Positions 1,667-39,555 are shown, counted from the stretch's first letter. The stretch: 50,951 nt of DNA from Patescibacteria group bacterium (GCA_038077975.1 JBBUGM010000027.1:1-50951); one strand, 5' to 3'. The notes: generated from the sequence alone by a model not told the origin. Made by a program: numbers and translations.

Positions 1667-2002
1667 AACTATCCTCCCGAACTAATATGTTGATGTTCCT
1701 ACTGGGCATTTTAGCATAGTCGAATCGATATGTCAAAAAGAAAACGGACCCGCTCGTAAAGAGGGGGTCCGGGGTTTATGTGCGCAGCCAAAGCCGCGCG
1801 AGTATTAGTGCTGACAAGATTGCCAGCAGAAGAGATAAAAAGTATTTATGATTCAGTGGGCTGATTTAAAGATAGCAGTTCGGTTGGGACGCGCAAGGTT
1901 TCTCTTGGGGATAAGTCGCATTCATAAATCAAGGGGTTGAAAACGCCGCAATACTCTGTTAAGCTCAAGCCAGAATTTGTTTGACAACCGAGGGGGCACA
2001 AA

Positions 2003-3748
2003 GTGAACGAAGAATGCCGCTGCTTTCAAGAAGAAAACCTTGTTCCTCTGCCATTGGGCCTTTGGCGGAGCATCAACAGCAATCCTCAAAGAACCGCCAT
2101 TGATTTCTGCGGACGCGCGTTCAGCTATGAAGATCTTGGCCTTTGGGCGGCGACTTTTAAAAAAATATTCGCTGGCCTTGGCGGTTTGGGCACCCCGGGC
2201 GACGAGATTCCGCGCATATCGCTCCTCCTGCCGAACGTGCCACAGTTTATCTTTGCTTATTTTGGCGCGCTCCTGAACCGCCAGATCGTCTCGCCCGTAA
2301 ACTATGTTCCCTTGGCAAGCCAACTCAAGACAGCCAAACCGAAAAATATCAAAATTGATGAGAAACTAATCAAACAATTCGAACAAACGCGTCTGAGCAT
2401 CGTTGTTGTGGCCGAACCGTTCTGGCCGATTCTCGAAAAGGTCGGTTTGGAACTATTCCGCGATTCCGTGATTATTATCACGAGCCCGGCCGATTTTCTT
2501 CCGAAAACGAAAAGTGTGCTCTATCCCCTGAGCGCTCTTTGGAACTACGGATTTGTAAGAATTCCGAAACGAGGGAACGTCGTCCGGCTTCGCGACCTTC
2601 TGCAGAACGACTGGCGACCATCGTTTGGCGTCTTCGAGGAATACGCCGCAAGTCCTGCCGCGCTCGAGGATGTCTCCCACTTGCAATATACGGGCGGCAC
2701 AACCGGCGCTCCGAAGGGCGCGATGTTAACTCATGAAAATTTGGTCTCTAACCTCTGGCGATGCCGCGAATATCTTGGCGAGATCGTTGAAGACGGTGCC
2801 TCCATGCTAGCCGCTTTGCCGCTGTGCCACTCTTACGGATTCACAATGGCCATGACAACGCTCATCGGCCTTAAGGGGAAACTCGTGCTCTTGCCGAAAT
2901 TTTCTCCAAAAGAGGCCTGTAAACTGATCGAGAAACATAAGATCAAGCTTTTTCCCGGATCGGGAAAGATGTTCGAAGCGATCCGGCCGCTGGTCGGCCA
3001 CTACGATCTTTCATCGTTGACATTCTGCCCAACAGGAGCGGAAAAAACGCCAACCGAACTCATTTCTTCGCTCCGCAAACAAGGCGTTCCCGTTTATGAG
3101 GGGTATGGACAATCGGAAACATCTCCCGTGATTTCTTTCTGCAAACCCGGCGCGGATAAAATCGGCAGCGTCGGCAAACCCATACCGGGAACCGAAATCC
3201 GCATTGTTGACGTCGAAAGCGGCGAAGAAAAACCGGCGGGAGAAATGGGCGAAATAATCGTGCGCGGGCCGCAGGTAATGAAGGGCTATTACGGCAACCA
3301 GAAAGAATCGGCGGCAAAAATAAAAAACGGCTGGCTTTATACCGGCGATGTCGGAAAAATTGACGAAGACGGATTTCTTTGGTTTATCGATCGAGAAGAC
3401 AATTCCGGAAAAGTGGCCGGGGAGTGGGTTTACGGAGCCCCCGTCCGCGAGTTTTTGCTTAAATATTGGGACATCAAGAATTGTGTCGTATTCTGCGTAC
3501 TTGACGAAAAAACCGGCCAATCCCCGGCCCACGCGTTTATTCTGCCAGGCGCGTCATTTACGAAAGAAGGTCTTGCCGCGCATCTCCGCGACCTGCCAAA
3601 CCCTTACTGGAGACCCAAAAAGGTGGTCATTTTTGACGAACCGGCGTTCAATCAGTGGTTCGATCCCGTTTTAAACAAGGTGAACTTCAAGGCCGCGAAA
3701 AAGTATTATCTTGAAAATCGCGATACGCTCCGATCGATTTATCCTTAA
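2003..3748 (+). CDS. Adenylate-forming enzyme, long-chain acyl-CoA ligase (FadD-like)
   Basis: YTGGTTGAPKG, YEGYGQSE, RGPQVMKGY and YTGDVG motifs; SD GAGGGG before GTG. Confidence 0.88.
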   Translation: MNEECRCFQEENLVPLPLGLWRSINSNPQRTAIDFCGRAFSYEDLGLWAATFKKIFAGLGGLGTPGDEIPRISLLLPNVPQFIFAYFGALLNRQIVSPVNYVPLASQLKTAKPKNIKIDEKLIKQFEQTRLSIVVVAEPFWPILEKVGLELFRDSVIIITSPADFLPKTKSVLYPLSALWNYGFVRIPKRGNVVRLRDLLQNDWRPSFGVFEEYAASPAALEDVSHLQYTGGTTGAPKGAMLTHENLVSNLWRCREYLGEIVEDGASMLAALPLCHSYGFTMAMTTLIGLKGKLVLLPKFSPKEACKLIEKHKIKLFPGSGKMFEAIRPLVGHYDLSSLTFCPTGAEKTPTELISSLRKQGVPVYEGYGQSETSPVISFCKPGADKIGSVGKPIPGTEIRIVDVESGEEKPAGEMGEIIVRGPQVMKGYYGNQKESAAKIKNGWLYTGDVGKIDEDGFLWFIDREDNSGKVAGEWVYGAPVREFLLKYWDIKNCVVFCVLDEKTGQSPAHAFILPGASFTKEGLAAHLRDLPNPYWRPKKVVIFDEPAFNQWFDPVLNKVNFKAAKKYYLENRDTLRSIYP

Positions 3749-25239: not shown

Positions 25240-27312
25240 ATGCAAGACCTAAATCCACAACAAAAAAAGGCGGCCGAGGCGGCGGTCGGGCCGCTTATAA
25301 TAGTGGCCGGCGCCGGAACCGGAAAAACGCGCACATTAACGCACCGCATCATTCATTTAATAAATGAAGGGGTGCCGCCCGAGAGGGTCTGCGCGATAAC
25401 CTTCACGAATAAAGCGGCGGAAGAAATGCGTTCACGCATTTCTTTATCAACGAATAACGAATCAATTGCGAATAAACGAATTCGTAAATTCGAAACAAAT
25501 TTGTTATTCGCTGATTTGCCTTTTATAGGCACCTTCCACTCTCTTGGCGCGAAAATTTTACGGAAAGAAGCGCGCGCCCTTGGTCGAGCGCCGAACTTCG
25601 TTATTTTCGATAGCGACGATTCTTTTTCGCTCATTAAAAGAATCGTTAAAAAATTTTTCCCGAAAGAAGATCACAAAAAAGTTCTTCGACAAGCTCAGGA
25701 TAAAAAATCTCCGGCGTATTTCGCAAGAAAGATCGGTGAGATAAAAAATTTATATAATGCTGATGGCGATGATTATCGCCTGAGCGAACGGAGCGAGTCG
25801 AAGGCCAACCATCTAAAAACCCTTCGACAAGCTCAGGGAATAAACTGTGTTAAAATTTATAACGAATACGAGAACGAATTGAAAAAAAATAATGCATTCG
25901 ATTTTGATGACCTTATCGAAAAACCGGTTTCGCTTTTCGAAAAACATCCGGAGATCCTTGAAAAATATCAGAAAAAATTTGACGCCATCCTTGTCGACGA
26001 ATATCAAGATGTGAATCCGAAGCAATATGATTTCGTGCGCTTGCTTTCCGGCGGTCACAGAAACTTGAGCGTAGTAGGGGACGATGAGCAGATGATCTAT
26101 GGCTGGAGATATGCCGATGTAAAAATATTTTTGAATTTCGACCGTGATTGGCCTGGCGCGCAAATCGCATTCCTCGAAGAAAATTATCGTTCGACCGCGA
26201 ACATCATCAATGCCGCGGCCGCCGTCGCGAAAAATAATTTATTGCGGACACCGAAAACCCTTTGGACAAAAAGCGAGGCCGGCGCTCCGATAAAGATCAT
26301 CGAGATTGCGGATGAAGAGCAGGAAGCGGAATATATCGCGCGGGCAATATATAATGCCGATGATGCGGACGGAAACAATGCGGATGATGCCGATAACCAT
26401 CCGCAACATCCGCATAAAACATTCGTAGATCCGCATTATGAAAGCATCGCCGTGCTCTATAGGACCAACGCCCAGTCGCGGGCGCTAGAACAGGCGCTTA
26501 TCCGGCACCAAATTCCCTATAAGATATTCGGCGGAGTGCGGTTTTACGAGAGAAAAGAGATCAAGGATATAATTGCTGCCTTGCGCTGGGTTTTTAATCC
26601 GAAAGACACGATAAGCCGCGAAAGATTGGAGAAAAACCTGCCGAAATTCAAGTTTCGGGCGCTTGAAGACGCCCTAATTGAAACCAAAAATGAGCTCGCC
26701 GCGCCAAAGACGAACGGCGGAGGCGGGCTACCGACAGAACTTATCAAGACGTTTCTCGAAGCAACCGATTACCTCGAATATCTTGACAGGAGCTACTTAA
26801 ACGCCGAGGAAAGGCGGGAGAACATCAAGGAATTGGTGGGGTTTGCCGCCGGATTTGATGACTTGGAACGTTTTTTGGAAGAAGTGGCGCTGGTGCAACC
26901 CCTCGATCAATCTGGCGACAACAATAAAAATCGGGGTATCATCCAAAAAAATCAAGAAAATCATTCGGGGCATTCGGATGTATTTGTAGATTCGGATCGC
27001 GGCAGGTGGCCGGAGGTCCACCTGATGACCATCCACCTTGCGAAGGGGCTGGAGTTCGATCGCGTATTCATCGCCGGTTGCTCCGAGGGATTAATGCCCC
27101 ATGCGATGTCTATGGACAAGAGCGAACAACTCGAAGAAGAGAGGCGGCTGATGTACGTCGCGATGACGCGCGCGAAAAAAGAATTGAATATCAGTTTCTA
27201 CAACATTCCGTCGCGATTTATCGGCGAAATCCCGCAGGAACTTGCCGAATATAAAACCGCCGCGGATAATGCGGCGGGAAACGAAGAGGAGGAAATCGTT
27301 TTCTTGGATTAA
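25240..27312 (+). CDS. pcrA: SF1 helicase PcrA/UvrD with several repeat-derived insertions
   Basis: GAGTGKT, TFTNKAA, DEYQD, VGDDEQ, LEENYRS, LYRTNAQS, AKGLEF, EERRLMYVAMTRAK; ATG 25240. Confidence 0.95.
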   Translation: MQDLNPQQKKAAEAAVGPLIIVAGAGTGKTRTLTHRIIHLINEGVPPERVCAITFTNKAAEEMRSRISLSTNNESIANKRIRKFETNLLFADLPFIGTFHSLGAKILRKEARALGRAPNFVIFDSDDSFSLIKRIVKKFFPKEDHKKVLRQAQDKKSPAYFARKIGEIKNLYNADGDDYRLSERSESKANHLKTLRQAQGINCVKIYNEYENELKKNNAFDFDDLIEKPVSLFEKHPEILEKYQKKFDAILVDEYQDVNPKQYDFVRLLSGGHRNLSVVGDDEQMIYGWRYADVKIFLNFDRDWPGAQIAFLEENYRSTANIINAAAAVAKNNLLRTPKTLWTKSEAGAPIKIIEIADEEQEAEYIARAIYNADDADGNNADDADNHPQHPHKTFVDPHYESIAVLYRTNAQSRALEQALIRHQIPYKIFGGVRFYERKEIKDIIAALRWVFNPKDTISRERLEKNLPKFKFRALEDALIETKNELAAPKTNGGGGLPTELIKTFLEATDYLEYLDRSYLNAEERRENIKELVGFAAGFDDLERFLEEVALVQPLDQSGDNNKNRGIIQKNQENHSGHSDVFVDSDRGRWPEVHLMTIHLAKGLEFDRVFIAGCSEGLMPHAMSMDKSEQLEEERRLMYVAMTRAKKELNISFYNIPSRFIGEIPQELAEYKTAADNAAGNEEEEIVFLD

Positions 27313-28535
27313 ATGCTCGTCCCGGCAATAGAAAACAAGCTTCCTGTTCCAATTACGGTACAAAATGGAGGGGTCGCAAAAATTAGCTGAACGCACGGCT
27401 TGGCAAAAGAATAATTTCCCAACCAAATTGCGCCAATTCTCATGGATTCAAACGGATAGAAAAATGGAGGGAATACCATGCTAAGCGGCATAACAAGGGA
27501 ATCCGAAACGGGCGGTGGCGTTGGTAGCGTGATACCAAACCAAAAATTTGCACTGCAAATGCAAAATGGTGGCCAGCCGTAAATTGGCCCGCCCGGAGGA
27601 AGAGTGATGGCCCCGCCAAATCCCGGCAACTGTGCAAATGCTCGCTTTGGCACACCTAAAAATTCTGCCAGTTTCTGAAAAATGCCGGTGGAATCGTAAG
27701 AAAGAACATTCAATTGATCCAAAAATTTTTCATTTTCGAATAAGGATGTTGTTCGAAAGCGAGCAAAAAACAGTGTAAGTTCCTGCACGCTAATTCTGCC
27801 TTCGATTGTGGCGATAGCCTTATCGATCAACTCAATTGTTAAATCGTTCAAAGAAATTACCAATTTATTAGTCGTGGCTCCATCTCCAAAAACAGAGATA
27901 GATCTGGCGAATTCCTTACGGGCTTCCATAAAATCACGATAGATAAGCAAAGAATTTTTTATTTCCGGCGATCTTGCTCCATCTAATACTTTTTGGACAA
28001 GTTCATTCGGCAAAAGAGGACCGCTGCTTGCGTTTAATGCCAAATTTGCAAAACGAAGATTGTCAAATTCGATGCTTTCATAGCCGGAAGAAAACGCTTC
28101 AGCGTAATCAAGTGCTGTTTTCACACCGGCACTATCTATTCGCAGAATTTCATCGGCGATTACTGGCAGTTTAAGAAGTTCTTCGGCAGGCGGCGGCACG
28201 GTTATACCCGGCTGCCCCAGGGCATCTTGAACAGCCCTTGTCACGTCTTCTATCGACGGCACTTTTATGTCGAATTTAGGCGGTGAAATCGGCTCAAAAA
28301 CGCTTTTCCCGTCCTCGAGAGAGGGGATTCCGAGTGGGCCGGATGGGATGGATTCTGGCGGCAAAAACGCGCTCCCAGAGGGCTTAAATTCTGGTACGGA
28401 AACCGGCGGCAATCCGCCCCCGGGAGCTACGGCTTCCTTGGGCGCGGTGAATGGCGGAAAAACGAATATTAAAATTAAAAGAAGTCCTAGGCCGGCCACG
28501 GCAACAACGATCAAAAATTTGGGAGAATTAAGCAT
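27309..28535 (-). CDS. Membrane-anchored two-module surface protein
   Basis: N-terminal TM, Pro-rich linker, helical module, internal PKRAFA, Cys-containing C-terminal domain; stop codon shares TTAA with pcrA. Confidence 0.8.
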   Translation of the reverse strand: MLNSPKFLIVVAVAGLGLLLILIFVFPPFTAPKEAVAPGGGLPPVSVPEFKPSGSAFLPPESIPSGPLGIPSLEDGKSVFEPISPPKFDIKVPSIEDVTRAVQDALGQPGITVPPPAEELLKLPVIADEILRIDSAGVKTALDYAEAFSSGYESIEFDNLRFANLALNASSGPLLPNELVQKVLDGARSPEIKNSLLIYRDFMEARKEFARSISVFGDGATTNKLVISLNDLTIELIDKAIATIEGRISVQELTLFFARFRTTSLFENEKFLDQLNVLSYDSTGIFQKLAEFLGVPKRAFAQLPGFGGAITLPPGGPIYGWPPFCICSANFWFGITLPTPPPVSDSLVMPLSMVFPPFFYPFESMRIGAIWLGNYSFAKPCVQLIFATPPFCTVIGTGSLFSIAGTSI

Positions 28536-28564
28536 CTTATAAAATTATAATAGCACAATTCCAG

Positions 28565-28682
28565 ACAAATTTTCAATTATCAATTCTCAATTTTCAATCA
28601 AACCTCAAGCATTAATGCGCAATTGAAAATTAAACCATTTTGGAACTTTATTGATAATTGCTCATTGAAAATTGATAATTAA
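28565..28682. repeat. 7-nt periodic palindromic element (TCAATT/AATTGA family)
   Basis: Left arm ttttcaa-ttatcaa-ttctcaa-ttttcaa; right arm ttgaaaa/ttgataa units. Confidence 0.8.
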
Positions 28683-28685
28683 GCC

Positions 28686-29573
28686 ATGAGTCGCCTTGGC
28701 CAACATTTTTTAAAAGATAAAGTCGCGCTCAAAAAAATTGTTGATGCGCTGGATTTGCGCTCCGGTGACATCGTTATTGAGATTGGAGCGGGACACGGAG
28801 AGCTCACTAGAAAAATTATCAATTTTCAATTATCAATTTTCAAAAACGATGCGCAAAAAATTAAAATTATTGCAATCGAAAAAGACAATGGTCTCGCAAA
28901 AGAATTTGCGAGAAATTTTCAATGTCCAATTTCCAAGTTTCAAGAAAATGCTGATAAATTACTAAATGAAAATTTCGTGCTCTTTAATGATGATGTTTTG
29001 AAAATTCTAGCGCCCTTGATCGAATTTCTAAATTTGAAAATTGAAAATTGTAAATTGAAAATTTGCGGGAATATTCCCTACTACATCACCGGAAAACTTT
29101 TGCGTATTTTGAGCGAGCTGGAAAATAAGCCGGAGGTTTCCGTTTTCACAATCCAAAAAGAGGTTGCCGAAAGAATGTGCGCCTTGCCGCCGCGTAATAA
29201 CCGCTTGGCCGCAATAACACAGTTCTGGACAGAGCCAAAAATCCTCGAATATCTCGCGCCCGGGGCGTTTAATCCGCCGCCGGAGGTGGAGTCCGCCATC
29301 ATTAGATTAAAAATCAAAGATCAAAATGCAAAATTGATCGACGCGTGGAAATACTACGAAACCGTAAGAATTTTGTTCCAACAGCCGCGCCAAACAATTT
29401 TGAACAACCTCGCGCGGGCGACTAAACAAAAAAGGGCCATCGGCACAAATCAGCCCAATCGGCATAAATCAGCGATTATAGAAAAGCTTTCCGCAATAGA
29501 GATCGATCCCGAAAGCCGGCCACAAAATTTGAGCGTTGGAGAAATAATTCAAATCAGCTCCTTAAACCTTTGA
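28686..29573 (+). CDS. rsmA: 16S rRNA dimethyladenosine transferase with repeat-derived insertions
   Basis: LGQHFL, IEIGAGHGELT, AIEKD, GNIPYYIT, QKEVAERM, FNPPPEVESA, RPQNLS. Confidence 0.95.
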   Translation: MSRLGQHFLKDKVALKKIVDALDLRSGDIVIEIGAGHGELTRKIINFQLSIFKNDAQKIKIIAIEKDNGLAKEFARNFQCPISKFQENADKLLNENFVLFNDDVLKILAPLIEFLNLKIENCKLKICGNIPYYITGKLLRILSELENKPEVSVFTIQKEVAERMCALPPRNNRLAAITQFWTEPKILEYLAPGAFNPPPEVESAIIRLKIKDQNAKLIDAWKYYETVRILFQQPRQTILNNLARATKQKRAIGTNQPNRHKSAIIEKLSAIEIDPESRPQNLSVGEIIQISSLNL

Positions 29574-29764
29574 TCGGTCAATCCGGCATCGCGAATAATT
29601 CCGCGAAGGGTGTAGGGGTTAAGACGAGTATGTCGCGGTATAGTCACCCTGCGTCGTCCATCCGTCATGCCAATGTGTTTTTTCCCGCGACCTTCTGAAA
29701 TCCAGAAGCCGACTTTTTTTAAAGCCCTGACCAACCGATCGGATGAAATATCCGTAAAAAGCAT
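29549..29764 (-). CDS. hicA: HicA-family toxin
   Basis: LVRALKKVGF...GKKH...VTIPRH...TLRGIIRDAGL; TGATG coupling to hicB. Confidence 0.88.
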   Translation of the reverse strand: MLFTDISSDRLVRALKKVGFWISEGRGKKHIGMTDGRRRVTIPRHTRLNPYTLRGIIRDAGLTDQRFKELI

Positions 29765-29970
29765 CAGCCAGCGGCGATTTCCAACTCTCGAACCTTAACA
29801 TTGGTTCCTTCGGTCTCTGCCAAATCCATCCCAATATATGTCTTAATCGCGTCCCCGATGTTCTCTAGTGCCTCTTTTTCGGTTTTCCCTTGGCTGTGAC
29901 ACCCGGGAAAAGCGGGGACGTGGACATCGTAGCCATATTTGCTTTTCCGCAAAATAACAGTGTATTTCAT
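29764..29970 (-). CDS. hicB: Short HicB-family antitoxin
   Basis: VPAFPGCHSQGKTEKEALENIGDAIKTY; no C-terminal DNA-binding domain. Confidence 0.9.
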   Translation of the reverse strand: MKYTVILRKSKYGYDVHVPAFPGCHSQGKTEKEALENIGDAIKTYIGMDLAETEGTNVKVRELEIAAG

Positions 29971-29977
29971 TGCTTTT

Positions 29978-30005
29978 ATGCTAACAGGCCTAAAAAAAAA
30001 GTCAA
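29978..30005 (-). promoter_or_regulatory. hicBA promoter, likely leaderless
   Basis: TTGACT-16-(TGt)TAGCAT, then 7 nt to ATG. Confidence 0.6.
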
Positions 30006-30094
30006 GTTTTTGAGAGGCCGGCCTGCCCGAAACCGCTGTGTATAGTTTGGGAATTTCCTGGGTATAAAAGATATATAATGAATGTAAACGCCCC

Positions 30095-30228
30095 TTTCCG
30101 GCGATTGGTTTACGGTTTCGACGCCCGTATGGGATATCGGTTTACGGCGTATGGTTTCGAAGCCCGAATAACTTTCAACGTATAACGTATAACGATACGC
30201 GCTTCGTAAACGCACAACGTATAACGAT
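30095..30228. repeat. Long imperfect hairpin element, copy 1
   Basis: 30143-30187 matches 48105-48149 at 42 of 45 nt; tandem tataacg units. Confidence 0.8.
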
Positions 30229-30234
30229 GCTCAA

Positions 30235-32412
30235 ATGGTTGATATAAAAAAACTTATAACAGGATTTTTGATCTTGGCCGCAGTCGCGAGTTCTTCGGCC
30301 TTATTCCTGTCGAGCATAATTCCGTCCAAAAACGTTGCGCTTCAAAGCGAACCCCTAATCGAGGAATCATCCAATAACTCGCTCCCCCCTCTTTTGTCGC
30401 AAAATGCTTTCGTCGAGTCCCTGCCCGCATCCAAACCAGCTACTACACCCACACCATCTGCCTATGCTTCCAGCGACGGCCTGCCCCCGGTAATTCCAAC
30501 CGACAACCTCACGGAAAATCTCGCCCAACAGCTTACGCGTGGCATTTTCGCATCAAATCCCAACGGGCCGGGCGAAGTGGGCGGCGAAGCGGCATTTCTT
30601 TTACCGTCGGGAGAAGAGCTCGACTCCATGCTCGGGCAAAGCCTTGCGGCAAACAACCAGATCGGCGCATTGCCGGATTTTAACAATCCAATCTCGGATG
30701 TAAATCTAAAAATAATATCAAACGCAAGCCAGAAAGACGCCGAAAAATATTTTGAGGCGGTGGACAAGGCCCTTGGGCTGACTCTCTTCAACCAGAACTT
30801 TGACAGTTTGTTGGCGCAGGAGCCAAGTTTGAACGCGGCGGCAAGCGCTCGGCTTGTCTACGATGAAGCTGTTATAAAACTAGAAAATGCTTCTGTCCCC
30901 AAAGAACTCGTCTCGTTTCATAAATCGCTTCTCGCCCTCGTTTCCAATCAGAAAAAATTTACCGAAATTCTGACGAGCCATCTCGACGATCCGGCAAGAG
31001 CAATAGCTTTGGCAAGGACCGCGCAGGGAAAAATTGACGATGTAGCCGCTCGCGATGTTGAAAACTACCGAAAGGAATTTGAAAAACTGGGGACTATTTC
31101 TTTCTCCGGCAAAAACTCTTTGTCAATCTTCCAAGATTCATTCGGCATAAAAACGGCACATGCTTTTATCTTTGTTCCTATTAATCGTGCCTTAACGACT
31201 GATCCCATAGCAATCGCCGAAAAAGTTTCCACTTGGGGCAACTGGATACATAATCTTTATACATGGGTCCAGGACTATTTATTGGGCATACTCCAAAATC
31301 AACTGATTTCGTTAATCCAGAGACAGCTGATCAATTGGATACAAGGTGGCGGAAACCCCAAATTTATCACGGACTGGAAGAGCTTTTTGGGAGATATTTT
31401 CAATCAGGCGGCGGGGGCGGCGATAGACGAGCTTACTGATGGAGCATTGTGCAGTGCTTTCGGGCCGTTTATACGACTTAACCTTCGCAATACCTTTTCC
31501 GGCGGCGGCAGTTTGAATATAACGAGTTGCACGTTGGATCGAATAGTCGGCAATCTAAGGGGATTTTTCCAAGATTTCAGTTCTGGTGGATGGTTGGCAT
31601 ATGGGGCAATGTTGCAACCGGAAAACGATTTTTACGGCAAATATGCCATTGCATCTGAGTTCGCGCTTAGAAAAGCTGAAGACGCTAAAGAAGCCGCGAA
31701 AAACACCGGCCTTGCCGGTTCGGGCTTCTTGGGCACACAATCCTGCAGCGATGGTTCCGAAGCGCACCAGGGTAGATGCGCAGACGGTTCTACTCCTCAA
31801 ACGCGAACACCGGGAGAAACGGTAGCGAGCGCGCTTTCCGATTCGCTCAGCTTGCCGGGTCAGCGCATAGTCAATTCCAAACGCTTGGAGAACCTTATTG
31901 CCGCACTGGTGGACGCGGCGATAAACCGCATAATACAAAGCGGCCTTGCGGGCCTCTCGGGATTTTCTTTCAGCGGCTCCGGCCCGTCTCCCGGCGCATT
32001 GCCAACTATTCCCACCGAGCAACAGGGAACCCAACCGTCGGGCTCAACGCCTGCAACGGGTAATGCCGGCGGATGGACTGGCGGAGGGTCGAGCGGTGGC
32101 GGCGCGGTCTGCGGCAACGGCTCGTGTGAAACCGGCGAAACAATAATAAGTTGTCCCGCCGATTGCGGTGGCGGCGAAGGGGGCGGTGGAGGATTGGCCT
32201 GCACGCCGTCGACACAAAACGTTGCTGCGGGAAGCCCGGCAGCGCTTACGGCACAAAACGGAACTGGTAATTACTCCTGGGGTGCACCGGGCGGCTCACC
32301 ATCGAACGGCACTGGCCCATCTTTCTCCGTTACATATCTCTTCACTGGGCTAAAAACCGTCCTTCTTGGAGACGGCGTAAGCAGTGTCAGCTGCCAGGTT
32401 ACCGTCCAATAA
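30235..32412 (+). CDS. Large membrane-anchored surface protein, first gene of the T4SS-like cluster
   Basis: N-terminal TM, helical module, internal GIKTAHA, Gly-rich linker, CGNGSCETGETIISCPADC repeat, terminal Ig/PKD-like domain. Confidence 0.85.
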   Translation: MVDIKKLITGFLILAAVASSSALFLSSIIPSKNVALQSEPLIEESSNNSLPPLLSQNAFVESLPASKPATTPTPSAYASSDGLPPVIPTDNLTENLAQQLTRGIFASNPNGPGEVGGEAAFLLPSGEELDSMLGQSLAANNQIGALPDFNNPISDVNLKIISNASQKDAEKYFEAVDKALGLTLFNQNFDSLLAQEPSLNAAASARLVYDEAVIKLENASVPKELVSFHKSLLALVSNQKKFTEILTSHLDDPARAIALARTAQGKIDDVAARDVENYRKEFEKLGTISFSGKNSLSIFQDSFGIKTAHAFIFVPINRALTTDPIAIAEKVSTWGNWIHNLYTWVQDYLLGILQNQLISLIQRQLINWIQGGGNPKFITDWKSFLGDIFNQAAGAAIDELTDGALCSAFGPFIRLNLRNTFSGGGSLNITSCTLDRIVGNLRGFFQDFSSGGWLAYGAMLQPENDFYGKYAIASEFALRKAEDAKEAAKNTGLAGSGFLGTQSCSDGSEAHQGRCADGSTPQTRTPGETVASALSDSLSLPGQRIVNSKRLENLIAALVDAAINRIIQSGLAGLSGFSFSGSGPSPGALPTIPTEQQGTQPSGSTPATGNAGGWTGGGSSGGGAVCGNGSCETGETIISCPADCGGGEGGGGGLACTPSTQNVAAGSPAALTAQNGTGNYSWGAPGGSPSNGTGPSFSVTYLFTGLKTVLLGDGVSSVSCQVTVQ

Positions 32413-32424
32413 AAATTTCTTGAA

Positions 32425-34806
32425 ATGTCCATTCTGAAAATAAATAAAAAATATTGGCTGGCGTTTATTCTTCTGGCGGTCGTTTTTATGGTCGCGACTC
32501 CACTAAATTTAGCGCGCGCGCAAGAACTTCCGAGCGCCCGTTCATGCGCCGGTAATCTTGTTGGTTGCGGAGTATATGTCACCGCATTGCTTGCAAATAA
32601 AATCAGTGGGTTGCTGGTATCCGGCGGGGCCTATCTTTTTGAGATTTCCCTGGAATTTAGCGCGGGGGCCGCTCGTATGCCGGTCGTTGAAAATGGTTTC
32701 AGCACGGCTCTTGCAATAGCCAATCTTGGATTTGTTCTTGGCATTATAGTAATCGCTATTGCAACAATTCTTCGCAATCAGACGTATGGCATCAAACAGC
32801 TTCTTTGGAAACTGGTAGTCGCGGCAATACTTGTTAACTTCTCTTTAGTAATAGGAAGAACTATTGTGGAGTCCGCGGATAATTTAACGAAGTCGTTTTT
32901 ACCGAACAGAAGCGTGCTGGCGGCGAGATTAGCCGATGCCCTCAAACCGCAGGCCGCCAATATTCCCCCGGTGCTTGCTTCTGCGGGCTCGAGCGGAGCA
33001 TGGTCGGCAAGTGTATGCGCCGATCAAGCAAGCAAGCTTGGAACCGACGCATTAAGAAAAGCGGCCGCTGCCACGTGTTCATTTATGGCCACAATACTAG
33101 ATCCGGTTTCAACTATACAAAATTTTACCTGGTTCTGGGGGCTTGGTCTGGGGGATTTATTCAGGGCGGCGCTAAATATGGTGATGGTGGTCTTTGTCAA
33201 TATGGTAATTGCATTTACTTTGTTGGCCGCCGCCATAATGTTAATTATCAGATTCTTTTACATAGGCATTTTGCTTATATTAATGCCGTTCGCGTGGCTG
33301 ATGTGGATTTTCCCGAACTTCAAATATCTGTGGACAAAGTGGTGGGGCTTGTTTTTAAGGTGGACGATGTTCGCGCCTGTCGTCGTAATTTTCTTGTTCC
33401 TTGCTTCTGAAACAGCTCAAATCGAATTTATCGACAATATAATCGGTGGCGCTGGAAACTTAAACAGTAGCGCTGCCATAGCTTTGTCTGCCGGAACCGG
33501 CAATCCCGCGCTCACCTTCTCTGTTGCGTCGCAAATAATGGTTGCCGCCTTTGCCCTCGGCGGGCTTTTCGCGGCTAACTCTCTAGGCATCCACGGAGCG
33601 TCATTCGCAATGGGCATCGCGAAAAGCGCGGGCACGATGGCGGCGGGGTATGTGGGGAAGCAAACCAAAAAGGGCGGCAGGGCTATACTGCGTAGCACGG
33701 GCATTGCGGAGAGAATGAGAACCAGTCCGTTGAGGCCGGTAGCTATTGCGGGCAGAGCGTTAGCTGGCATCAGTACGAACGAGGCGATGGTCGCGGAAGC
33801 CGCAAAAAAAGTGCTGGACAGAAAAGAGGATGTAATGGCAGGCCTTAGGGGCTCAATGAACACCGAAACACGGATGGCATATCTGCAAAAAGCTCAGAAG
33901 GAGGGCTGGATCAAACCGGATACGGAGGTGGGCGGTATGAGTGTGGGCGAATTTCTGAATCGGAATAGGGAAAAATTCAAGGGTTACGGGCAAAGCGGGG
34001 AAGGAAGTTTGGAAGAAAAATTAAGGGAGGACACGAAGTTGGCAGAACAAGATTGGACAAATGAAGAAAAAACAATCAATGCAAGAAACGGGGAACTAAA
34101 CAAAAAACGCAGTCTTTCCGACGAGGATGCCGCAAAGCAGGCCGGTTTGGGCGACGACGATAGGAATTTCTATTTGGCCGCAGAAAAAGAGAGCGAATAT
34201 GAATTTGCCTTGCGATCCGAAAAAGACAAAGAGAGGTTCTCTCAACTCCGCAGCAAGGCGCAGGAAGCCAGAGAAAAAGGCGGCCTCTCGCCCGAAGAAC
34301 AAAGAGAATTTGAAGAAAACCAGAGAAAACTTGGCGACATCGAAAGGAAGCGCAGTAAATACGTTTCAAAAAATCCGGATGCCGCCGCGGCAACTTTCCA
34401 AGACCACGAAGCGGCGCGCGCCAAACTTGCAGCCGAAGGCAAGCCGATTCCGGCAACGCTGGAGAAGGAATCGATAGAACGTATGCAAGAGGCAATGTTA
34501 AGCGCGATGGCTAAGGGTTTTTCTCCTCACACTGCCCGCGCCCTACTTGATGCCATTGGGAAAGCTAACAACCTTAAGCACTTTGAGGCCGCCGTAATGC
34601 GCCTAAAAGAAGGTAAAACGCCGGAGGATAAAAAGAAATTCGACCAAATACAGATGGCTCTCAACGCTAACACAGAACTCAAGCGCTGGATGCAAAACAG
34701 CGCGGGCCGGGCGCTTTTCGGCAACATTCATGAATTGTTCGGGCTTAAGAAGCTTAAGAATAAGAAGCGGAAGATAGAGGACGAAGAAGATGAAGAAGAA
34801 GCATAA
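32425..34806 (+). CDS. VirB6/TrbL-like polytopic membrane protein with a charged coiled-coil tail
   Basis: Signal peptide (LARA-Q), multiple TMs (IILLILMPFAW-like, WWGLFLRW), long K/E-rich C-terminus; context upstream of prgI and virB4. Confidence 0.72.
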   Translation: MSILKINKKYWLAFILLAVVFMVATPLNLARAQELPSARSCAGNLVGCGVYVTALLANKISGLLVSGGAYLFEISLEFSAGAARMPVVENGFSTALAIANLGFVLGIIVIAIATILRNQTYGIKQLLWKLVVAAILVNFSLVIGRTIVESADNLTKSFLPNRSVLAARLADALKPQAANIPPVLASAGSSGAWSASVCADQASKLGTDALRKAAAATCSFMATILDPVSTIQNFTWFWGLGLGDLFRAALNMVMVVFVNMVIAFTLLAAAIMLIIRFFYIGILLILMPFAWLMWIFPNFKYLWTKWWGLFLRWTMFAPVVVIFLFLASETAQIEFIDNIIGGAGNLNSSAAIALSAGTGNPALTFSVASQIMVAAFALGGLFAANSLGIHGASFAMGIAKSAGTMAAGYVGKQTKKGGRAILRSTGIAERMRTSPLRPVAIAGRALAGISTNEAMVAEAAKKVLDRKEDVMAGLRGSMNTETRMAYLQKAQKEGWIKPDTEVGGMSVGEFLNRNREKFKGYGQSGEGSLEEKLREDTKLAEQDWTNEEKTINARNGELNKKRSLSDEDAAKQAGLGDDDRNFYLAAEKESEYEFALRSEKDKERFSQLRSKAQEAREKGGLSPEEQREFEENQRKLGDIERKRSKYVSKNPDAAAATFQDHEAARAKLAAEGKPIPATLEKESIERMQEAMLSAMAKGFSPHTARALLDAIGKANNLKHFEAAVMRLKEGKTPEDKKKFDQIQMALNANTELKRWMQNSAGRALFGNIHELFGLKKLKNKKRKIEDEEDEEEA

Positions 34807-34819
34807 ATTCTAGCTAAAC

Positions 34820-36358
34820 ATGACTAATATCACCACGCAACAAGCAAGGGCGCGCTTCACAACAATTCCGCAAATCTTGCAGAACGAGGTTTTTTCCGTA
34901 CAAAACGCGGAAGTTATCGAGCAAATCTCGAAGCAAAATAATTTACCCGACGAGAAAATAGGAGAAGTTGCGGAAGTTGTTGGTTTCGCTCTTTTGGGGT
35001 TCATCCATCCCGAAGATGTGGCGAAAGAAGTAGAAGAACGGGCCGAAATTCCGCCCGCGCTTGCAACCGCGATATCCGAAGCGATAAATAAAAAAATATT
35101 CGCTTCTTTAAGAAACCAGTTAGATGAAATCTATGCTCCGGCTCCCCACGATCACGAACTCGAAGAAAAACCGCCGGTCTTTGTGGAAGAAATTAGGCCG
35201 CCGGTGGCGACTGCTCCTTCCGCTCCGAAAATGCCGACGGCGGTGCAACCCGTTGATATCAACAAAATTTTTGGCCCTTCGGCTGGCTCAGGGCAGGCGA
35301 TGACGCGACCCATTCCGCCGCCAGCGGTAAAACCTTTCGGCGCAATACAGGTTAAACCGCCGATGCCGCCTGCGCCGTCAACCGCAACAGGAATGAAAGT
35401 AGAGCCGCCCAAGCCGCCAGTATCGCAAATCTCTCCGATAAAGCCCGCCTCATCGACGCCTACATCAAAACCGCCCGGCAAGGAGGGATTGAGCGAATTT
35501 GAACGCCTCGGACTCGCCAAAAAATTAGGAGAGGCAACAGAACCAACGGTGCTTTACAAAGCACCAGAGGCAAAACTCGGCGAAAAAGTATCGAGTTTCA
35601 AGATCGAAACGCCGATCCCGAAATTCGACAAAGGAAAGCCCTTCGACTCCGCTCGGGGTATAACCGCTCCCCTAAGGCCGGCAGTACTCGAATTCGGGAC
35701 GGGCAAGCCGCCAGCCGCCCCTCCTTCGCCCAAAGCCGCGGAGGGCAAGGCGAGAATTGTGAACTATTCGGATCTAAAAACGACTCTTCCCCCGGTGGCA
35801 CCAAAACCGGCTCCAGAAAGAGAAATTAGGGAATTCACCGCGAAAGAAGCCGGACTCCCGACTTCACCCTCCAAAATTTCTGAAAGAAATTTAGGAGGGC
35901 AGGCGTCGGGAATGACAGAGAGGCCAGCGGCCGTGGCGCCATCGCCAATTAAACCCTTCGACTTCGCTTCCGCCGACGCCAGGGCTTTGGCGGACAGGCA
36001 GGGAATAAAAGCTCCAGAAAAACCAGCGGCTACACCCATGTCCAGACCACTCTTGGGGGACGAGAAAGCGATGCACCCCTCCCTTGAACCGTTGATGAAA
36101 AAAAGCGAGCCGCCCTCGCCTCCGGCTACGGCGAGCCAAAGACCGCCGGCTCCGCCGCCTTCCCCTTCGACAAGCTCAGGGAATAACGGAAGTTTATCGC
36201 CTGAGCGAGCTTCACGAGTCGAAGGCCGCCCTGCGACAAGCCCGGGAAATAACTCGACAAGCTCGGAGAATAACACCCCGCTGGCTTCTCCTCGCCCAAG
36301 AATCGAGCCACCACCCGTTCGTCGGCCAGAAAATCCATCCGACGAACGCAAGCTCTAA
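34820..36358 (+). CDS. Protein with a folded N-terminal helical domain and a Pro-rich disordered tail built partly from REP-like repeats
   Basis: Ordered first ~105 aa, then P/S/A-rich; repeat copies detailed in findings. Confidence 0.8.
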   Translation: MTNITTQQARARFTTIPQILQNEVFSVQNAEVIEQISKQNNLPDEKIGEVAEVVGFALLGFIHPEDVAKEVEERAEIPPALATAISEAINKKIFASLRNQLDEIYAPAPHDHELEEKPPVFVEEIRPPVATAPSAPKMPTAVQPVDINKIFGPSAGSGQAMTRPIPPPAVKPFGAIQVKPPMPPAPSTATGMKVEPPKPPVSQISPIKPASSTPTSKPPGKEGLSEFERLGLAKKLGEATEPTVLYKAPEAKLGEKVSSFKIETPIPKFDKGKPFDSARGITAPLRPAVLEFGTGKPPAAPPSPKAAEGKARIVNYSDLKTTLPPVAPKPAPEREIREFTAKEAGLPTSPSKISERNLGGQASGMTERPAAVAPSPIKPFDFASADARALADRQGIKAPEKPAATPMSRPLLGDEKAMHPSLEPLMKKSEPPSPPATASQRPPAPPPSPSTSSGNNGSLSPERASRVEGRPATSPGNNSTSSENNTPLASPRPRIEPPPVRRPENPSDERKL

Positions 36359-36485
36359 ATCCTAAGCCCTAAATCCTAAACAAAATCAAAATTCTAATGT
36401 TCCAAAACGCTAAAAACTTTTGGAATTTAGGATTTGTGGTTTGGGGCTTGTTTAGAATTTAGAATTTAAATATTAGAATTTAAAC
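36355..36485. repeat. 7-nt periodic palindromic element (CTAAAT/ATTTAG family)
   Basis: ctaaatc-ctaagcc-ctaaatc-ctaaaca left arm; ttagaat-ttagaat right arm. Confidence 0.8.
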
Positions 36486-36487
36486 TG

Positions 36488-36979
36488 ATGCAATTCCAAG
36501 TTCCCCAATTCATCGAAACGGAAGACAAGATAGTCGGGCCTTTTTCCATAAGGCAATTCATTTATATAGGCGCGGCCGGCATTGTGAGCTTCTTCCTTTA
36601 TTTCACGGTCGAGCTCTGGCTTTGGGTTTTGGGCACCGTTTTTTCGCTGGCGCTCGCAATGGGATTCGCCTTCATCAAGATAGAAGGGCGCGATTTAACG
36701 CATGTTCTCGCCGCGGCTTTGAACTTTTACTGGAAGCCACAAACCTACGTCTGGCAGCCGGAACATCCGGAAGTGCCGAAAAGCGAGGCGCTCGAAAAGG
36801 AAGCGGGAATTTCACTTGAAGACGTCCTTTCCGGTGCCGCGCTTCGAAACGCCTGGCGTGGGCTACAGACCGGCACGAAAGTTTCGCCTAGACAGGTCCT
36901 CGAGAAAGGAGAGAAATATCAGATCTTTCAAAAATTGAGCGGAGAACGCCGCGCCGCAAGGCGCATAGATTACAGATAA
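36488..36979 (+). CDS. prgI: PrgI-family (VirB3-like) membrane protein
   Basis: MQFQVPQFIETEDKIVGPFSIRQF followed by two TMs. Confidence 0.85.
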   Translation: MQFQVPQFIETEDKIVGPFSIRQFIYIGAAGIVSFFLYFTVELWLWVLGTVFSLALAMGFAFIKIEGRDLTHVLAAALNFYWKPQTYVWQPEHPEVPKSEALEKEAGISLEDVLSGAALRNAWRGLQTGTKVSPRQVLEKGEKYQIFQKLSGERRAARRIDYR

Positions 36980-37068
36980 TGCAAAAATCAAAATGCAAAA
37001 ACTGATTTCGAATGATAGAATTAATTAAACTTCATTTTGAATTTTGATTTTTTAATTTTGATCTAATT
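36978..37068. repeat. 7-nt periodic palindromic element (CAAAAT/TTTTGA family)
   Basis: atcaaaatgcaaaa is shared with 43143-43156 and with rsmA 29320-29333. Confidence 0.78.
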
Positions 37069-37070
37069 TT

Positions 37071-37742
37071 ATGCCCAAAGATCTCGGCAACACACAAGAC
37101 CTCGTGGCCATCGAGGAAATAAAAGAGGACACGGTGGTCCTCAAAGGCGGCGCCCTGCGGCAAATCATTATGGTGAGCGGCGTTAACTTCGCCTTGAAAT
37201 CGGAGGTAGAACAAAACGTGATAACGCAGTCGTATCAGAATTTTTTAAACGGACTCGATTTCAACATCCAGATCGTCATCCATTCGAGAAAAGTGAATGT
37301 GGAAAAATATCTTGGGATCATCACGCGCTTCGAAGAGATGGCAACGGTGCCCCTCATCAAAAACCAGGCGAGCGAATACAAAGAATTCATCCGCAGTTTC
37401 GTTTCCAAGAACGCGATCATGGAGAAAACGTTTCTTGTGCTCGTGCCTTTCGCCTCTGTTGCCTTGCCGAGCGCGGAATCCGTAACTTCCGGCATTTCTC
37501 TGCCGTTCTTCAAAAAGAAGGACGCGAAAGAAACGGAGGCGAAAGCGAAAGAGGCATCCGAAGAGCGCTTCAAGGAGGATCTGGCGCAACTTCGCCAGCG
37601 CACAACGCAAGTTGTGGACGGCCTTTACTCTGTCGGCCTTGAATCGGTGGTTCTGAACACTGAACAATTGATCCAGCTTTTCTATAATTTTTACAATCCG
37701 GAAACGATCGAAAGGGAGAATATGGAAATACCAAATCAATAA
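37071..37742 (+). CDS. T4SS-associated protein resembling the VirB4/TraE N-terminal region
   Basis: IIMVSGVNFALKSEVEQ...YQNFLNGLDFNIQIVIHSRK; lies between prgI and virB4. Confidence 0.72.
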   Translation: MPKDLGNTQDLVAIEEIKEDTVVLKGGALRQIIMVSGVNFALKSEVEQNVITQSYQNFLNGLDFNIQIVIHSRKVNVEKYLGIITRFEEMATVPLIKNQASEYKEFIRSFVSKNAIMEKTFLVLVPFASVALPSAESVTSGISLPFFKKKDAKETEAKAKEASEERFKEDLAQLRQRTTQVVDGLYSVGLESVVLNTEQLIQLFYNFYNPETIERENMEIPNQ

Positions 37743-37744
37743 AG

Positions 37745-37830
37745 TATCGATGCTAATCTGCGAATGAATACTAATTATACTAATGAATTTTTATTCGTAT
37801 CATTAGCATAATTCGTATATTCGTATCGAT
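37745..37830. repeat. Palindromic element, CGAAT/ATTCG family
   Basis: 16-nt identity with 17833-17848. Confidence 0.72.
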
Positions 37831-37839
37831 ACAATATCT

Positions 37840-39555
37840 ATGCCTGAAAATAATTTCAAAAACATCGCGAAGATAATAGCGCCCTCCGGCGTGCAGGTGC
37901 AGTCGAACAAGGCGAAGATCGGCAACAAAATCGCCAAGGCGTTCTTCGTTTTTTCTTATCCGCGCTATCTCGCGACCGGATGGTTCGAGCCCCTGATCAA
38001 CCTCCCCTACCTTTTCGATGCCTCCGTCTTCATAGACCCGATAGACACGGGCACGGCTTTGAAAAACCTACGAAAAAAGGCGGCGCAGATCGAGTCGCAG
38101 ATCAACGACCAGCAGGAAAAAGGGCTCGTGCGCGACCCCCTGCTCGAAACCGCCCTCCAGGACGTGGAGACCCTGCGCGATACACTCCAAACCTCGCAGG
38201 AAAAGCTCTTTGATGTCGGCCTTTATGTGACGATCTATGCCGACACCGACGACGAACTTGCGAAAGTCGAGTCGAAGCTTATCTCTCTTCTCGAAGCAAA
38301 GCTTGTCTACTTGAAGCCGGCGCTTTTCGAACAGCTTGAGGGCATTTTCTCGACCCTCCCCTTGGTTGACGACAAGTTGAAGATACACACGCCGATGAAC
38401 TCGGGGCCGGTTTCGTCTTTCTTCCCGTTCGTCTCCGAAGATCTTTCTTCCAACGAAGGAATTCTCTACGGCGTGAACCTCCACAACCAAAGTTTGGTCA
38501 TCTTCGACAGATTCTCGCTTGAAAACGCGAACCAGGTAGTTTTCGCGAAATCCGGCGCCGGAAAATCGTACGCCACGAAACTCGAGATCATCAGAGCCCT
38601 GATGACTGATGTCGAAAACATTATCATCATCGACCCCGAGAACGAATACAAAAAACTGGCGGAGACGTTCGGCGGCAGCTGGTTCAATATCTCGCTCTCT
38701 TCGAAAGAGCATATCAACCCATTCGACATACCCATGGTTCCCGAAGATGAATCTCCCGCAGACGTTTTGCGCTCTCACATCGTGAACCTTACGAGCTTAC
38801 TCAAGCTCATGCTCGGAAAGATCGCCCCGGAAGAAGAGGCGCTCCTCGACCGCGCCGTCACGGAAACCTACGCTTCGCGTGAGATCTCACCGAACAGGGA
38901 TTTCTCGGGCATCGAGCCGCCACTCCTCGAAGACCTCGAAACGGTTCTCCGCAATCTTGAGGGCGGCCGTTCGATGGCGGAGAGATTATACAAATACACA
39001 AAGGGTAGTTTTTCCGGCTTCATCAACCAGCCGACGAACGTGGACATGTCTAACCGGCTTATCGTTTTTTCCATCCGCGATCTTGAGGAAGAGCTACGGC
39101 CGATCGCTATGTTCGTCATTTTGAACTTTATTTGGAACCTTATACGCGCAAAACTTTCAAAGCGCCTACTTTTGATTGACGAGGCGTGGATCATGATGAA
39201 GAACGAAGACGCCGCCACTTTCCTTTTCGGAATGGTGAAACGCGCGAGAAAATATTATTTGGGCGTGACGACGATTACGCAGGACGTGGAGGACTTCTTG
39301 CGTTCGCCTTACGGCAGGCCGATCATCACAAACTCTTCTCTCCAGCTTTTATTAAAACAGGCGCCGGCAACGATCGAGCTTGTGGCGAAAGCTTTTAATT
39401 TAACTGAAACGGAAAAGAATTTCCTTCTGGGCTCCGAGGTCGGAACCGGACTTTTCTTCGCCGGCCGCAGGCACGTGGCGATCCAGATCGTCGCGTCTTA
39501 TTTCGAGGATCAGATAATCACGACAAACCCGGCGGAACTTTTGGAAGGAAAGTAG
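37840..39555 (+). CDS. virB4: VirB4-like T4SS ATPase
   Basis: ILYGVN, FDRFSLENAN, Walker A FAKSGAGKS, IIDPENEY, INPFD, Walker B LLIDEAW, RARKY, TITQDVEDF. Confidence 0.93.
   Translation: MPENNFKNIAKIIAPSGVQVQSNKAKIGNKIAKAFFVFSYPRYLATGWFEPLINLPYLFDASVFIDPIDTGTALKNLRKKAAQIESQINDQQEKGLVRDPLLETALQDVETLRDTLQTSQEKLFDVGLYVTIYADTDDELAKVESKLISLLEAKLVYLKPALFEQLEGIFSTLPLVDDKLKIHTPMNSGPVSSFFPFVSEDLSSNEGILYGVNLHNQSLVIFDRFSLENANQVVFAKSGAGKSYATKLEIIRALMTDVENIIIIDPENEYKKLAETFGGSWFNISLSSKEHINPFDIPMVPEDESPADVLRSHIVNLTSLLKLMLGKIAPEEEALLDRAVTETYASREISPNRDFSGIEPPLLEDLETVLRNLEGGRSMAERLYKYTKGSFSGFINQPTNVDMSNRLIVFSIRDLEEELRPIAMFVILNFIWNLIRAKLSKRLLLIDEAWIMMKNEDAATFLFGMVKRARKYYLGVTTITQDVEDFLRSPYGRPIITNSSLQLLLKQAPATIELVAKAFNLTETEKNFLLGSEVGTGLFFAGRRHVAIQIVASYFEDQIITTNPAELLEGK

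Follow-up and report, generated by a model that had tools for sequence, protein, structure and literature searches.

Why should two membrane-anchored proteins encoded at one locus carry, some 300 residues into each chain, what looks like the end of a signal peptide deprived of its hydrophobic core? The question is posed by a 50,951-nucleotide stretch of DNA from a Patescibacteria group bacterium (GCA_038077975.1 JBBUGM010000027.1:1-50951; hereafter the window), in which we refer to the two genes as A and B. Their host, an ultra-small groundwater bacterium of the Patescibacteria, is a monoderm without an outer membrane. The original prediction had read A and B as paralogous surface proteins, in which a conserved carrier presents variable cargo that may be cleaved off at an internal Ala-x-Ala (AxA) junction. 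Comparison with relatives leads to a different description: judged by sequence homology, A and B are each a fusion of an anchored helical module with a neighbouring secreted protein of a type IV secretion system (T4SS) locus, and the AxA is the partner's former signal-peptidase site, a c-region by descent.

An anchored helical module common to A and B

Both open reading frames (ORFs) are present as originally described, and each runs from an N-terminal transmembrane (TM) helix through a Pro-rich linker and a helical module to the AxA seam and a C-terminal domain of its own. Their parts, with helices taken from AlphaFold2 (AF2) models where indicated, are as follows.

27309-28535, minus strand: gene A, 408 aa (ORF), with TM anchor, linker, helical module, AxA seam and FGG/CxC secreted domain
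28455-28523, minus strand: N-terminal signal-anchor helix of A, residues ~5-27 (sole hydrophobic segment; AF2 helix 5-25)
28359-28373, minus strand: linker motif SAFLP of A (P-x-N-A-F-[LV]-P in the family alignment)
27708-28175, minus strand: helical module of A, residues ~121-276 (AF2; homology to the B module and to stand-alone modules)
27633-27692, minus strand: seam of A, the amphipathic helix GIFQKLAEFLG, then VPKR and AFA, with the AxA at 27633-27641
27312-27632, minus strand: C-terminal FGG...CxC...GTS domain of A, residues 302-408, with four conserved Cys (family alignment)
30235-32412, plus strand: gene B, 725 aa (ORF, homologues, AF2), with TM helix, linker, module, AHA seam, B-type domain, Gly/Ser/Pro linker and PKD/Ig domain
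30256-30324, plus strand: N-terminal signal-anchor helix of B, residues ~8-30 (hydropathy; AF2 helix 4-25)
30403-30414, plus strand: linker motif NAFV of B (alignment)
30505-31095, plus strand: helical module of B, residues ~91-287 (AF2 pLDDT 70-87; matches 31 stand-alone modules)
31111-31164, plus strand: seam of B, NSLSIFQDSFGIKTAHA, with AHA at 31156-31164 and the predicted cut after A310
31165-31974, plus strand: B-type secreted helical domain (WIQGGGxPKFITDW motif, conserved Cys; genome survey)
32191-32409, plus strand: C-terminal PKD/Ig-like domain of B (Pfam, AF2, Foldseek)

In the public annotation A is entered as P0003 (311 aa), whose start is placed at an internal codon, Val98 being read as Met; this call is thus without the TM anchor and linker, the region absent from it being 28242-28535 on the minus strand. 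Because homologues conserve both the TM helix and the NAF motif, we take the ATG at 28535 as the likely start of A.

Family A was collected by an exhaustive HMMER search with A and one close homologue as the query, and is represented by 121 clusters at 50% identity, nearly all of 370-420 aa and of one uniform architecture; a homologue search with a 69-sequence alignment returned only 2 proteins. The fused B set holds 12 proteins, namely 11 database homologues together with the fused B encoded on L062, the closest syntenic contig. Using the deep family-A profile, hhalign aligned A125-303 with B152-312 collinearly, both ending at the AxA (Prob 94.7%, E 6.4e-8). The alignment joins the three pairs of stretches quoted in the original prediction, and the profile similarity expected of paralogous carriers was thereby found. 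A second comparison of the A family with the B family gave Prob 93.9%. When restricted to the module the hhalign score was 37.1, whereas the controls for significance, 40 column shuffles and the reversed alignment, gave no more than 20.8 and 17.0, respectively; with the junction (last 25 residues) removed, it was 30.2 (E 3.8e-4). The 31 seam-less stand-alone modules of relatives are matched both by the family-A module profile (Prob 93.1%, E 3.2e-7) and by the B module (Prob 99.6%), and two individual stand-alone ORFs are hit by both module hidden Markov models (HMMs), that of L054 at 4.2e-8 (A) and 4.4e-12 (B) and that of L060 at 5.6e-6 (A) and 7e-14 (B). The predicted structures agree as well: AF2 gives A and B the same order of secondary structure, consisting of a short strand, short helices, three long helices and a helix of ~10 residues before the AxA, and the A module helices 190-212, 218-244 and 250-276 reach pLDDT 80-94.

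From these profile comparisons the modules of A and B appear homologous, at a distance that is remote but real, and the Cys-containing C-terminal domains are unrelated (hhalign Prob 2%), as had been proposed. Chance resemblance between unrelated helical N-terminal regions with a coincidental AxA would fit the direct comparisons: BLASTP of A against B and a two-sequence profile comparison (probability 1.8%) were both not significant, single HMMs gave no cross-detection of A and B within the genome, and the AF2 model of A retrieved only generic four-helix bundles with Foldseek. Set against profile-profile probabilities of 93-95%, shuffle controls that score far lower, intermediates matched by both HMMs, a common secondary-structure order and shared synteny, such a coincidence is very improbable. 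A search for a third module-bearing paralogue in this genome found none.

The linker of the fused proteins carries the motif P-x-N-A-F-[LV]-P some 25-35 residues after the TM helix. In family A its residues F57, A56 and N55 are kept in 83, 67 and 60 of 111 sequences, respectively, and the motif is present in 9/11 fused B proteins and in 0/18 stand-alone modules; the idea that NAF is a genome-wide sorting signal was rejected on a genome test. Many stand-alone modules have thrombospondin-type-3-like calcium-binding repeats (DxDxDGLxDWEE...DTDGDG) between the TM helix and the module, repeats that are absent from the fused forms. They are seen in L054:168-1217 (Pfam TSP3_bac 1.4e-7) and in L045, L047, L049, L052, L060, L064 and L066-L068.

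Fusion of genes that are separate in relatives

The distribution of each part was surveyed in 301 genomes of the same class; these genomes are related and are a sample, and the counts express prevalence rather than independent events. With the stand-alone module profile, 239/301 genomes gave matches, nearly all of them in ORFs of ~270-390 aa. The B profile matched 203/301, mostly only from the seam onwards. Of the 30 best loci, 29 encode the module and the B-type domain in two neighbouring ORFs, the module gene lying immediately upstream and the two frames frequently sharing a few bases. An unfused B-type ORF opens with a textbook signal peptide ending in AxA (e.g. MKFFNKKIVVSVFLFLIVFSTAPNAAFA, followed by AVP), and its gene usually lies directly upstream of the VirB6-like gene. 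Matches to the A profile occurred in 58 genomes, of which only about six have full-length A. The FGG...CxC...GTS domain itself, detected in roughly 30/301 genomes, occurs without the module in about 20 loci, mostly as a small protein with an open frame of 116-150 aa. All of these stand-alone FGG proteins, a few of which have extra C-terminal parts, begin with a plain signal peptide whose AxA immediately precedes (P)FGG.

A tree of the B-type domain groups 11 of the 12 fused proteins in a single clade (100/100), around which stand unfused sequences of the order to which the window belongs. Because of this nesting, we regard the fusion as derived, having arisen once or twice. Genome G237, of the same order, has a fused A and a B that is still unfused. 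Since the two parts are separate genes in most relatives, one might suspect an assembly or frameshift error that joined them, but this is hardly credible: the 12 fused B proteins come from independent samples (the aligned database homologues being 26-43% identical to B of the window), retain the fusion and group as a clade, the family A fusions amount to 121 clusters at 50% identity, and the systematic decay of the hydrophobic region in fused forms, described below, is not the product of a recent error.

The carrier-plus-cargo proposal thus stands in part. Its shared module and unrelated cargos hold, but the carrier is normally a gene of its own. Open-ended variation of the cargo was not borne out: profile searches found two fixed cargo types, the FGG/CxC protein in A and the B-type helical protein in B, both of which are conserved T4SS-locus proteins that normally have their own signal peptides. 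The system is better described as a fusion of neighbouring, and probably interacting, T4SS accessory proteins. Because they are fused, module and cargo are suggested to bind each other; as a natural Rosetta stone, the fusions predict that the anchored module binds each of its secreted partners.

The B-type domain is uniform in fused and unfused forms, and the far C-terminal appendage alone varies. B-type proteins range from ~290 to ~1800 aa, the variation lying after the conserved domain (ORFs of 1500-1800 aa occur, for instance, in genomes G072, G101, G129 and G259). Among 15 examined, five have PKD/Ig appendages and there are others besides, as expected for a host-contact or adhesin part. 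In the window's B the C-terminus scores 21.2 bits against Pfam PKD, below the cut-off of 23.5; AF2 models it with pLDDT 78-89, and Foldseek matches it to PKD/Ig domains (E ~0.02, prob 1.0, TMt 0.5-0.6), the only structures matched by B.

The C-terminal domain of A conserves G307, G308, C325, C327, C381, C392 and G405-T406-S407. Elsewhere, L025:1444-2502 (plus strand; genome G171) encodes a plain signal peptide, an FGG/CxC domain and, fused behind it, a Phage_lysozyme domain (Pfam 3e-5, above the cut-off), an arrangement that links FGG/CxC to cell-wall opening, a VirB1-like task. Another FGG variant (open frames of 231-310 aa; L010, L012, L017, L022 and L030) has a Gly-rich hydrophobic C-terminal extension without a Pfam match, ending in a conserved KKPPSLGSAYPII(H/R/Q)IGT motif.

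The AxA seam and its possible cleavage

The internal AxA motif, which the original prediction had noted as a signal-peptidase-like junction without a hydrophobic (h-) region, is conserved on both sides. In family A position -1 is Ala in 112/116 sequences (97%), position -3 is Ala in 86, Val in 14, Thr in 4 and Ser in 2 of 115 (106/115, 92%), and position -2 takes more than 12 residue types; Gly at -8 (77/89), Phe or Leu at -9, a hydrophobic residue at -7 and Gln at +1 (63/116) are further conserved positions. All 12 fused B proteins keep A-x-A over branch lengths of 0.4-2.8, preceded by the pattern hydrophobic-hydrophobic-x-x-hydrophobic-F-G-hydrophobic. As a motif, the seam matches the pattern expected of a type I signal peptidase (SPase I) site, that is, the -3/-1 rule with a free -2. 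Descent is indicated by alignment. The internal AxA of both A and B falls on true signal-peptide ends of unfused relatives, and in B residues A308 and A310 are invariant in 15 sequences and are aligned with the signal-peptide ends of the short homologues P0014-P0017. Directly behind the AxA begin the conserved N-termini of the mature proteins, (P)FGG in A and VP or IF in B.

What is missing is the hydrophobic core. Each of A and the window's B has a single hydrophobic segment, at the N-terminus, and no TM-like segment ahead of the AxA; in three fused B homologues (P0005, P0010 and P0011) the region before the AxA holds weak hydrophobic segments at the threshold. The maximal 10-residue Kyte-Doolittle window before the AxA averages 1.28±0.5 in 108 fused A proteins, whereas 20 signal peptides of the FGG domain in its stand-alone form average 3.1±0.36. 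The helix in place of the core has an amphipathic character: its hydrophobic moment is 0.43, and that of the rest of the module, taken as background, is 0.29. The site itself, residues 299-301 in A and 308-310 in B, lies behind a TM anchor and a folded module rather than at an N-terminal position with a basic n-region. In one family A member, P0124 (609 aa), an inserted stretch of ~190 residues separates the seam helix from the FGG domain; the seam therefore tolerates large inserts.

On balance, this conservation leads us to favour, with modest confidence, a cut of the exported chain after the AxA, probably by SPase I, of which the genome encodes a single gene (C21:2564-3037, Peptidase_S26, E 7e-38). 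The cut is predicted after A301 in A. In B, the uncleaved chain would yield the seam-spanning peptide TAHAFIFVPINR, whereas a cut after A310 predicts a start at FIFVPINR. That the cargo is translated from an internal start is disfavoured, as the B seam has no Met codon and a short leader would lack a hydrophobic core.

The proposed working is as follows. The N-terminal helix of the module would act as a signal anchor and place the module outside the membrane, so that in the fusions the whole chain would already be carried outside. A hydrophobic core retained in the cargo's former signal peptide would then span the membrane and flip the cargo back into the cytoplasm, and for this reason loss of the h-region is to be expected, as is indeed observed. 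The former core has decayed into the short amphipathic helix, while the helix-breaking Gly and the -3/-1 AxA box have been kept by selection. With the active site of SPase I at the outer membrane surface, an interfacial amphipathic helix could present the seam to it. The cut would restore the two proteins of the ancestral state, with the module anchored and the mature cargo free, and the freed cargo may stay bound to the module or pass to the T4SS; the module would be a possible escort or dock for T4SS surface components. Because the Gly breaker and the -3/-1 box persist in more than 100 diverged family-A clusters and in the fused-B clade, continued cutting would be the simplest explanation.

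The seam could alternatively serve an uncleaved tether, in which the module anchors the cargo on the cell surface and the AxA with its helix is structural, a helix cap or hinge. No h-region offers the site to SPase I, AF2 shows the helix before the AxA continuing the helical module, and for a monoderm, which has no outer membrane, a tether would stop the cargo from diffusing away. It is unlikely, however, that in more than 100 diverged sequences a structural hinge would obey the -3/-1 rule and leave -2 free; nor would a hinge account for an AxA that aligns exactly with the genuine cleavage sites of unfused homologues and is followed by their conserved mature N-termini. We regard permanent tethering as the lesser possibility, though one to be taken seriously.

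Several points weigh against cleavage by SPase I and the account built on it. As a rule, SPase I depends on a membrane-spanning h-region for positioning of the cleavage site, and the seam is without one; we know of no secure precedent for SPase I acting on such a substrate. The A-to-B module homology rests on remote profile-profile scores, and module-cargo binding is read from the fusion only. Overall AF2 confidence is low for both models (pLDDT 58 and 51), and the model of A, made from a three-sequence alignment, leaves the FGG domain unfolded and gives no fold for it. AgrD and SpsB, considered as a precedent for removal of an amphipathic leader by SPase I, were dropped as contradicted: reconstitution and knockout work on AgrD argues against SpsB, the real protease being MroQ (PMC9388083).

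The AgrD case and the lack of a secure in vivo precedent for h-region-less SPase I substrates make it conceivable that another enzyme, a dedicated membrane protease or a T4SS-associated peptidase, cuts at or near the seam with the AxA as its specificity determinant. Phe/Leu at -9, Gly at -8, the hydrophobic -7 and Gln at +1 do exceed a minimal signal-peptidase box. The conserved block, however, holds only pcrA, rsmA and T4SS genes and thus no candidate protease (a LysM-M23 gene encodes a wall hydrolase), and the motif was inherited from real Sec signal peptides, so that a different protease seems unlikely.

Cleavage by SPase I thus remains our preferred reading. A bolder version of it is tentative and, taken as a whole, rather doubtful: the module would be a dedicated anchored escort for T4SS surface subunits (a VirB5-like tip or adhesin, and FGG/CxC), and the seam would represent a new, h-region-less class of SPase I substrate, cut post-translocationally under the guidance of the amphipathic interfacial helix and a Gly-x(4)-AxA box, which would stand in for the transmembrane core of a signal.

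The type IV secretion locus and known systems

The position at the head of a T4SS-like cluster, proposed originally, is supported by synteny in nine loci. A and B are part of the head of a chromosomal MPF_FATA-like Patescibacteria T4SS locus, the other members of which are listed here.

28686-29573, plus strand: rsmA (Pfam RrnaAD E 1.2e-39), by synteny a conserved neighbour of the block
32425-39555, plus strand: downstream T4SS core (Pfam PrgI, TraG P-loop/AAA_10; order kept in nine related loci)
within 32425-39555, downstream of B, plus strand: VirB6-like 793-aa polytopic protein (position)
between the VirB6-like gene and PrgI, plus strand: 512-aa Pro-rich protein (gene order)
36488-36979, plus strand: PrgI, VirB3-like (Pfam PrgI 8.9e-10)
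between PrgI and VirB4, plus strand: TraC-like protein (gene order)
37840-39555, plus strand: VirB4 ATPase (Pfam TraG P-loop 5.9e-27, AAA_10)

The nine loci share the order pcrA, rsmA, the FGG gene (alone or as A), the module, the B-type gene, the VirB6-like gene, the gene for the 512-aa protein (in parentheses in the consensus), PrgI, the TraC-like gene and VirB4. The 793-aa VirB6-like protein has no Pfam match and is assigned from phmmer matches of 1e-7 to 1e-50 and its conserved position in all nine loci. VirB4 was detected in 292/301 genomes at ~60% identity, and in more than 20 genomes the B-type gene lies 5-7 kb from VirB4.

A chromosomal MPF_FATA-like T4SS of Patescibacteria was described in 2025 (PMC12102498) and has been reviewed (PMC12857230). 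That system has a core of VirB6-like, PrgI/VirB3, TraC/TrsD-like and VirB4 proteins, is chromosomal and highly conserved and has no relaxase nearby, all of which resembles the locus here; the sections of the 2025 paper that were consulted do not name the FGG/CxC, TM-anchored module and B-type families or their fusions. The system is essential for epibiotic growth in one cultivated model (PMC12857230). Its extracellular parts are largely unassigned, and the present analysis identifies three unnamed families at the head of the locus, a place that they occupy in most genomes of one class in the case of the module and the B-type protein (239/301 and 203/301) and in far fewer in that of FGG/CxC.

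Being secreted, mainly helical, encoded directly upstream of a VirB6-like gene and often equipped with adhesin-like C-terminal appendages such as PKD/Ig, the B-type domain resembles the minor pilus proteins VirB5/TrbJ and the Bacteroides TraI (DUF4141). In P0018 a weak DUF4141 match (residues 298-333, E 6.9e-5) falls exactly on the seam and the start of the mature protein; the profile matches 2 of 15 B-type members, the best at 22.6 bits against a cut-off of 30. The B-type domain had no significant match in PDB profile, Foldseek or plasmid tblastn searches; Pfam and NCBIfam scans of A and B gave no match except the weak PKD in B, and the PDB profile search found nothing for either protein. The B-type domain may thus be an analogue of VirB5/TrbJ/TraI, which we offer as a lead and not as membership.

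The seam shares with a classical Sec signal peptide the c-region (Ala at -1, small or aliphatic -3, free -2, a helix breaker upstream) and is homologous to real signal-peptide ends. It differs in being internal, ~300 residues in, behind a folded extracytoplasmic domain and without a hydrophobic core. Bradyrhizobium japonicum FbcH (cytochrome b/c1) is reportedly a polyprotein split at an internal signal peptide, and like A and B is said to be one gene for two proteins that are separate in relatives, with a signal-peptidase-type seam. The upstream part of FbcH, however, reportedly ends in the cytoplasm and is followed by a real membrane-spanning signal, whereas here the upstream part would already be outside, and because of this the hydrophobic helix could be lost while the cleavage box remains. 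The conjugative pilins TraA, TrbC and VirB2 have long leaders of 36-51 residues, with a normal hydrophobic core, that are removed by LepB after AxA. They resemble A and B as surface subunits of a T4SS whose N-terminal extension is unusually long; unlike theirs, the 'leader' here measures ~300 residues, contains a folded domain and is itself a conserved stand-alone protein elsewhere.

The seam offers a test case of a signal peptide that was fused behind an exported domain and has lost its core and kept its cleavage box. If cleavage is true, it would widen the accepted substrate rules of signal peptidase I, and annotators should expect signal-peptide predictors to miss such internal maturation sites.

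The interval between A and B contains rsmA and a HicA toxin/HicB antitoxin pair, the latter at 29549-29970 (minus strand) between rsmA and gene B (Pfam 4.7e-11 and 3.1e-8). In the syntenic contig L062 rsmA directly adjoins the fused B gene, and because of this HicA/HicB looks like a recent insertion into the conserved block. Inside its T4SS operon L062 also encodes, at 1698-2060 (minus strand) and between the PrgI and TraC-like genes, a 23S-rRNA-IVP/bAvd-like four-helix bundle.

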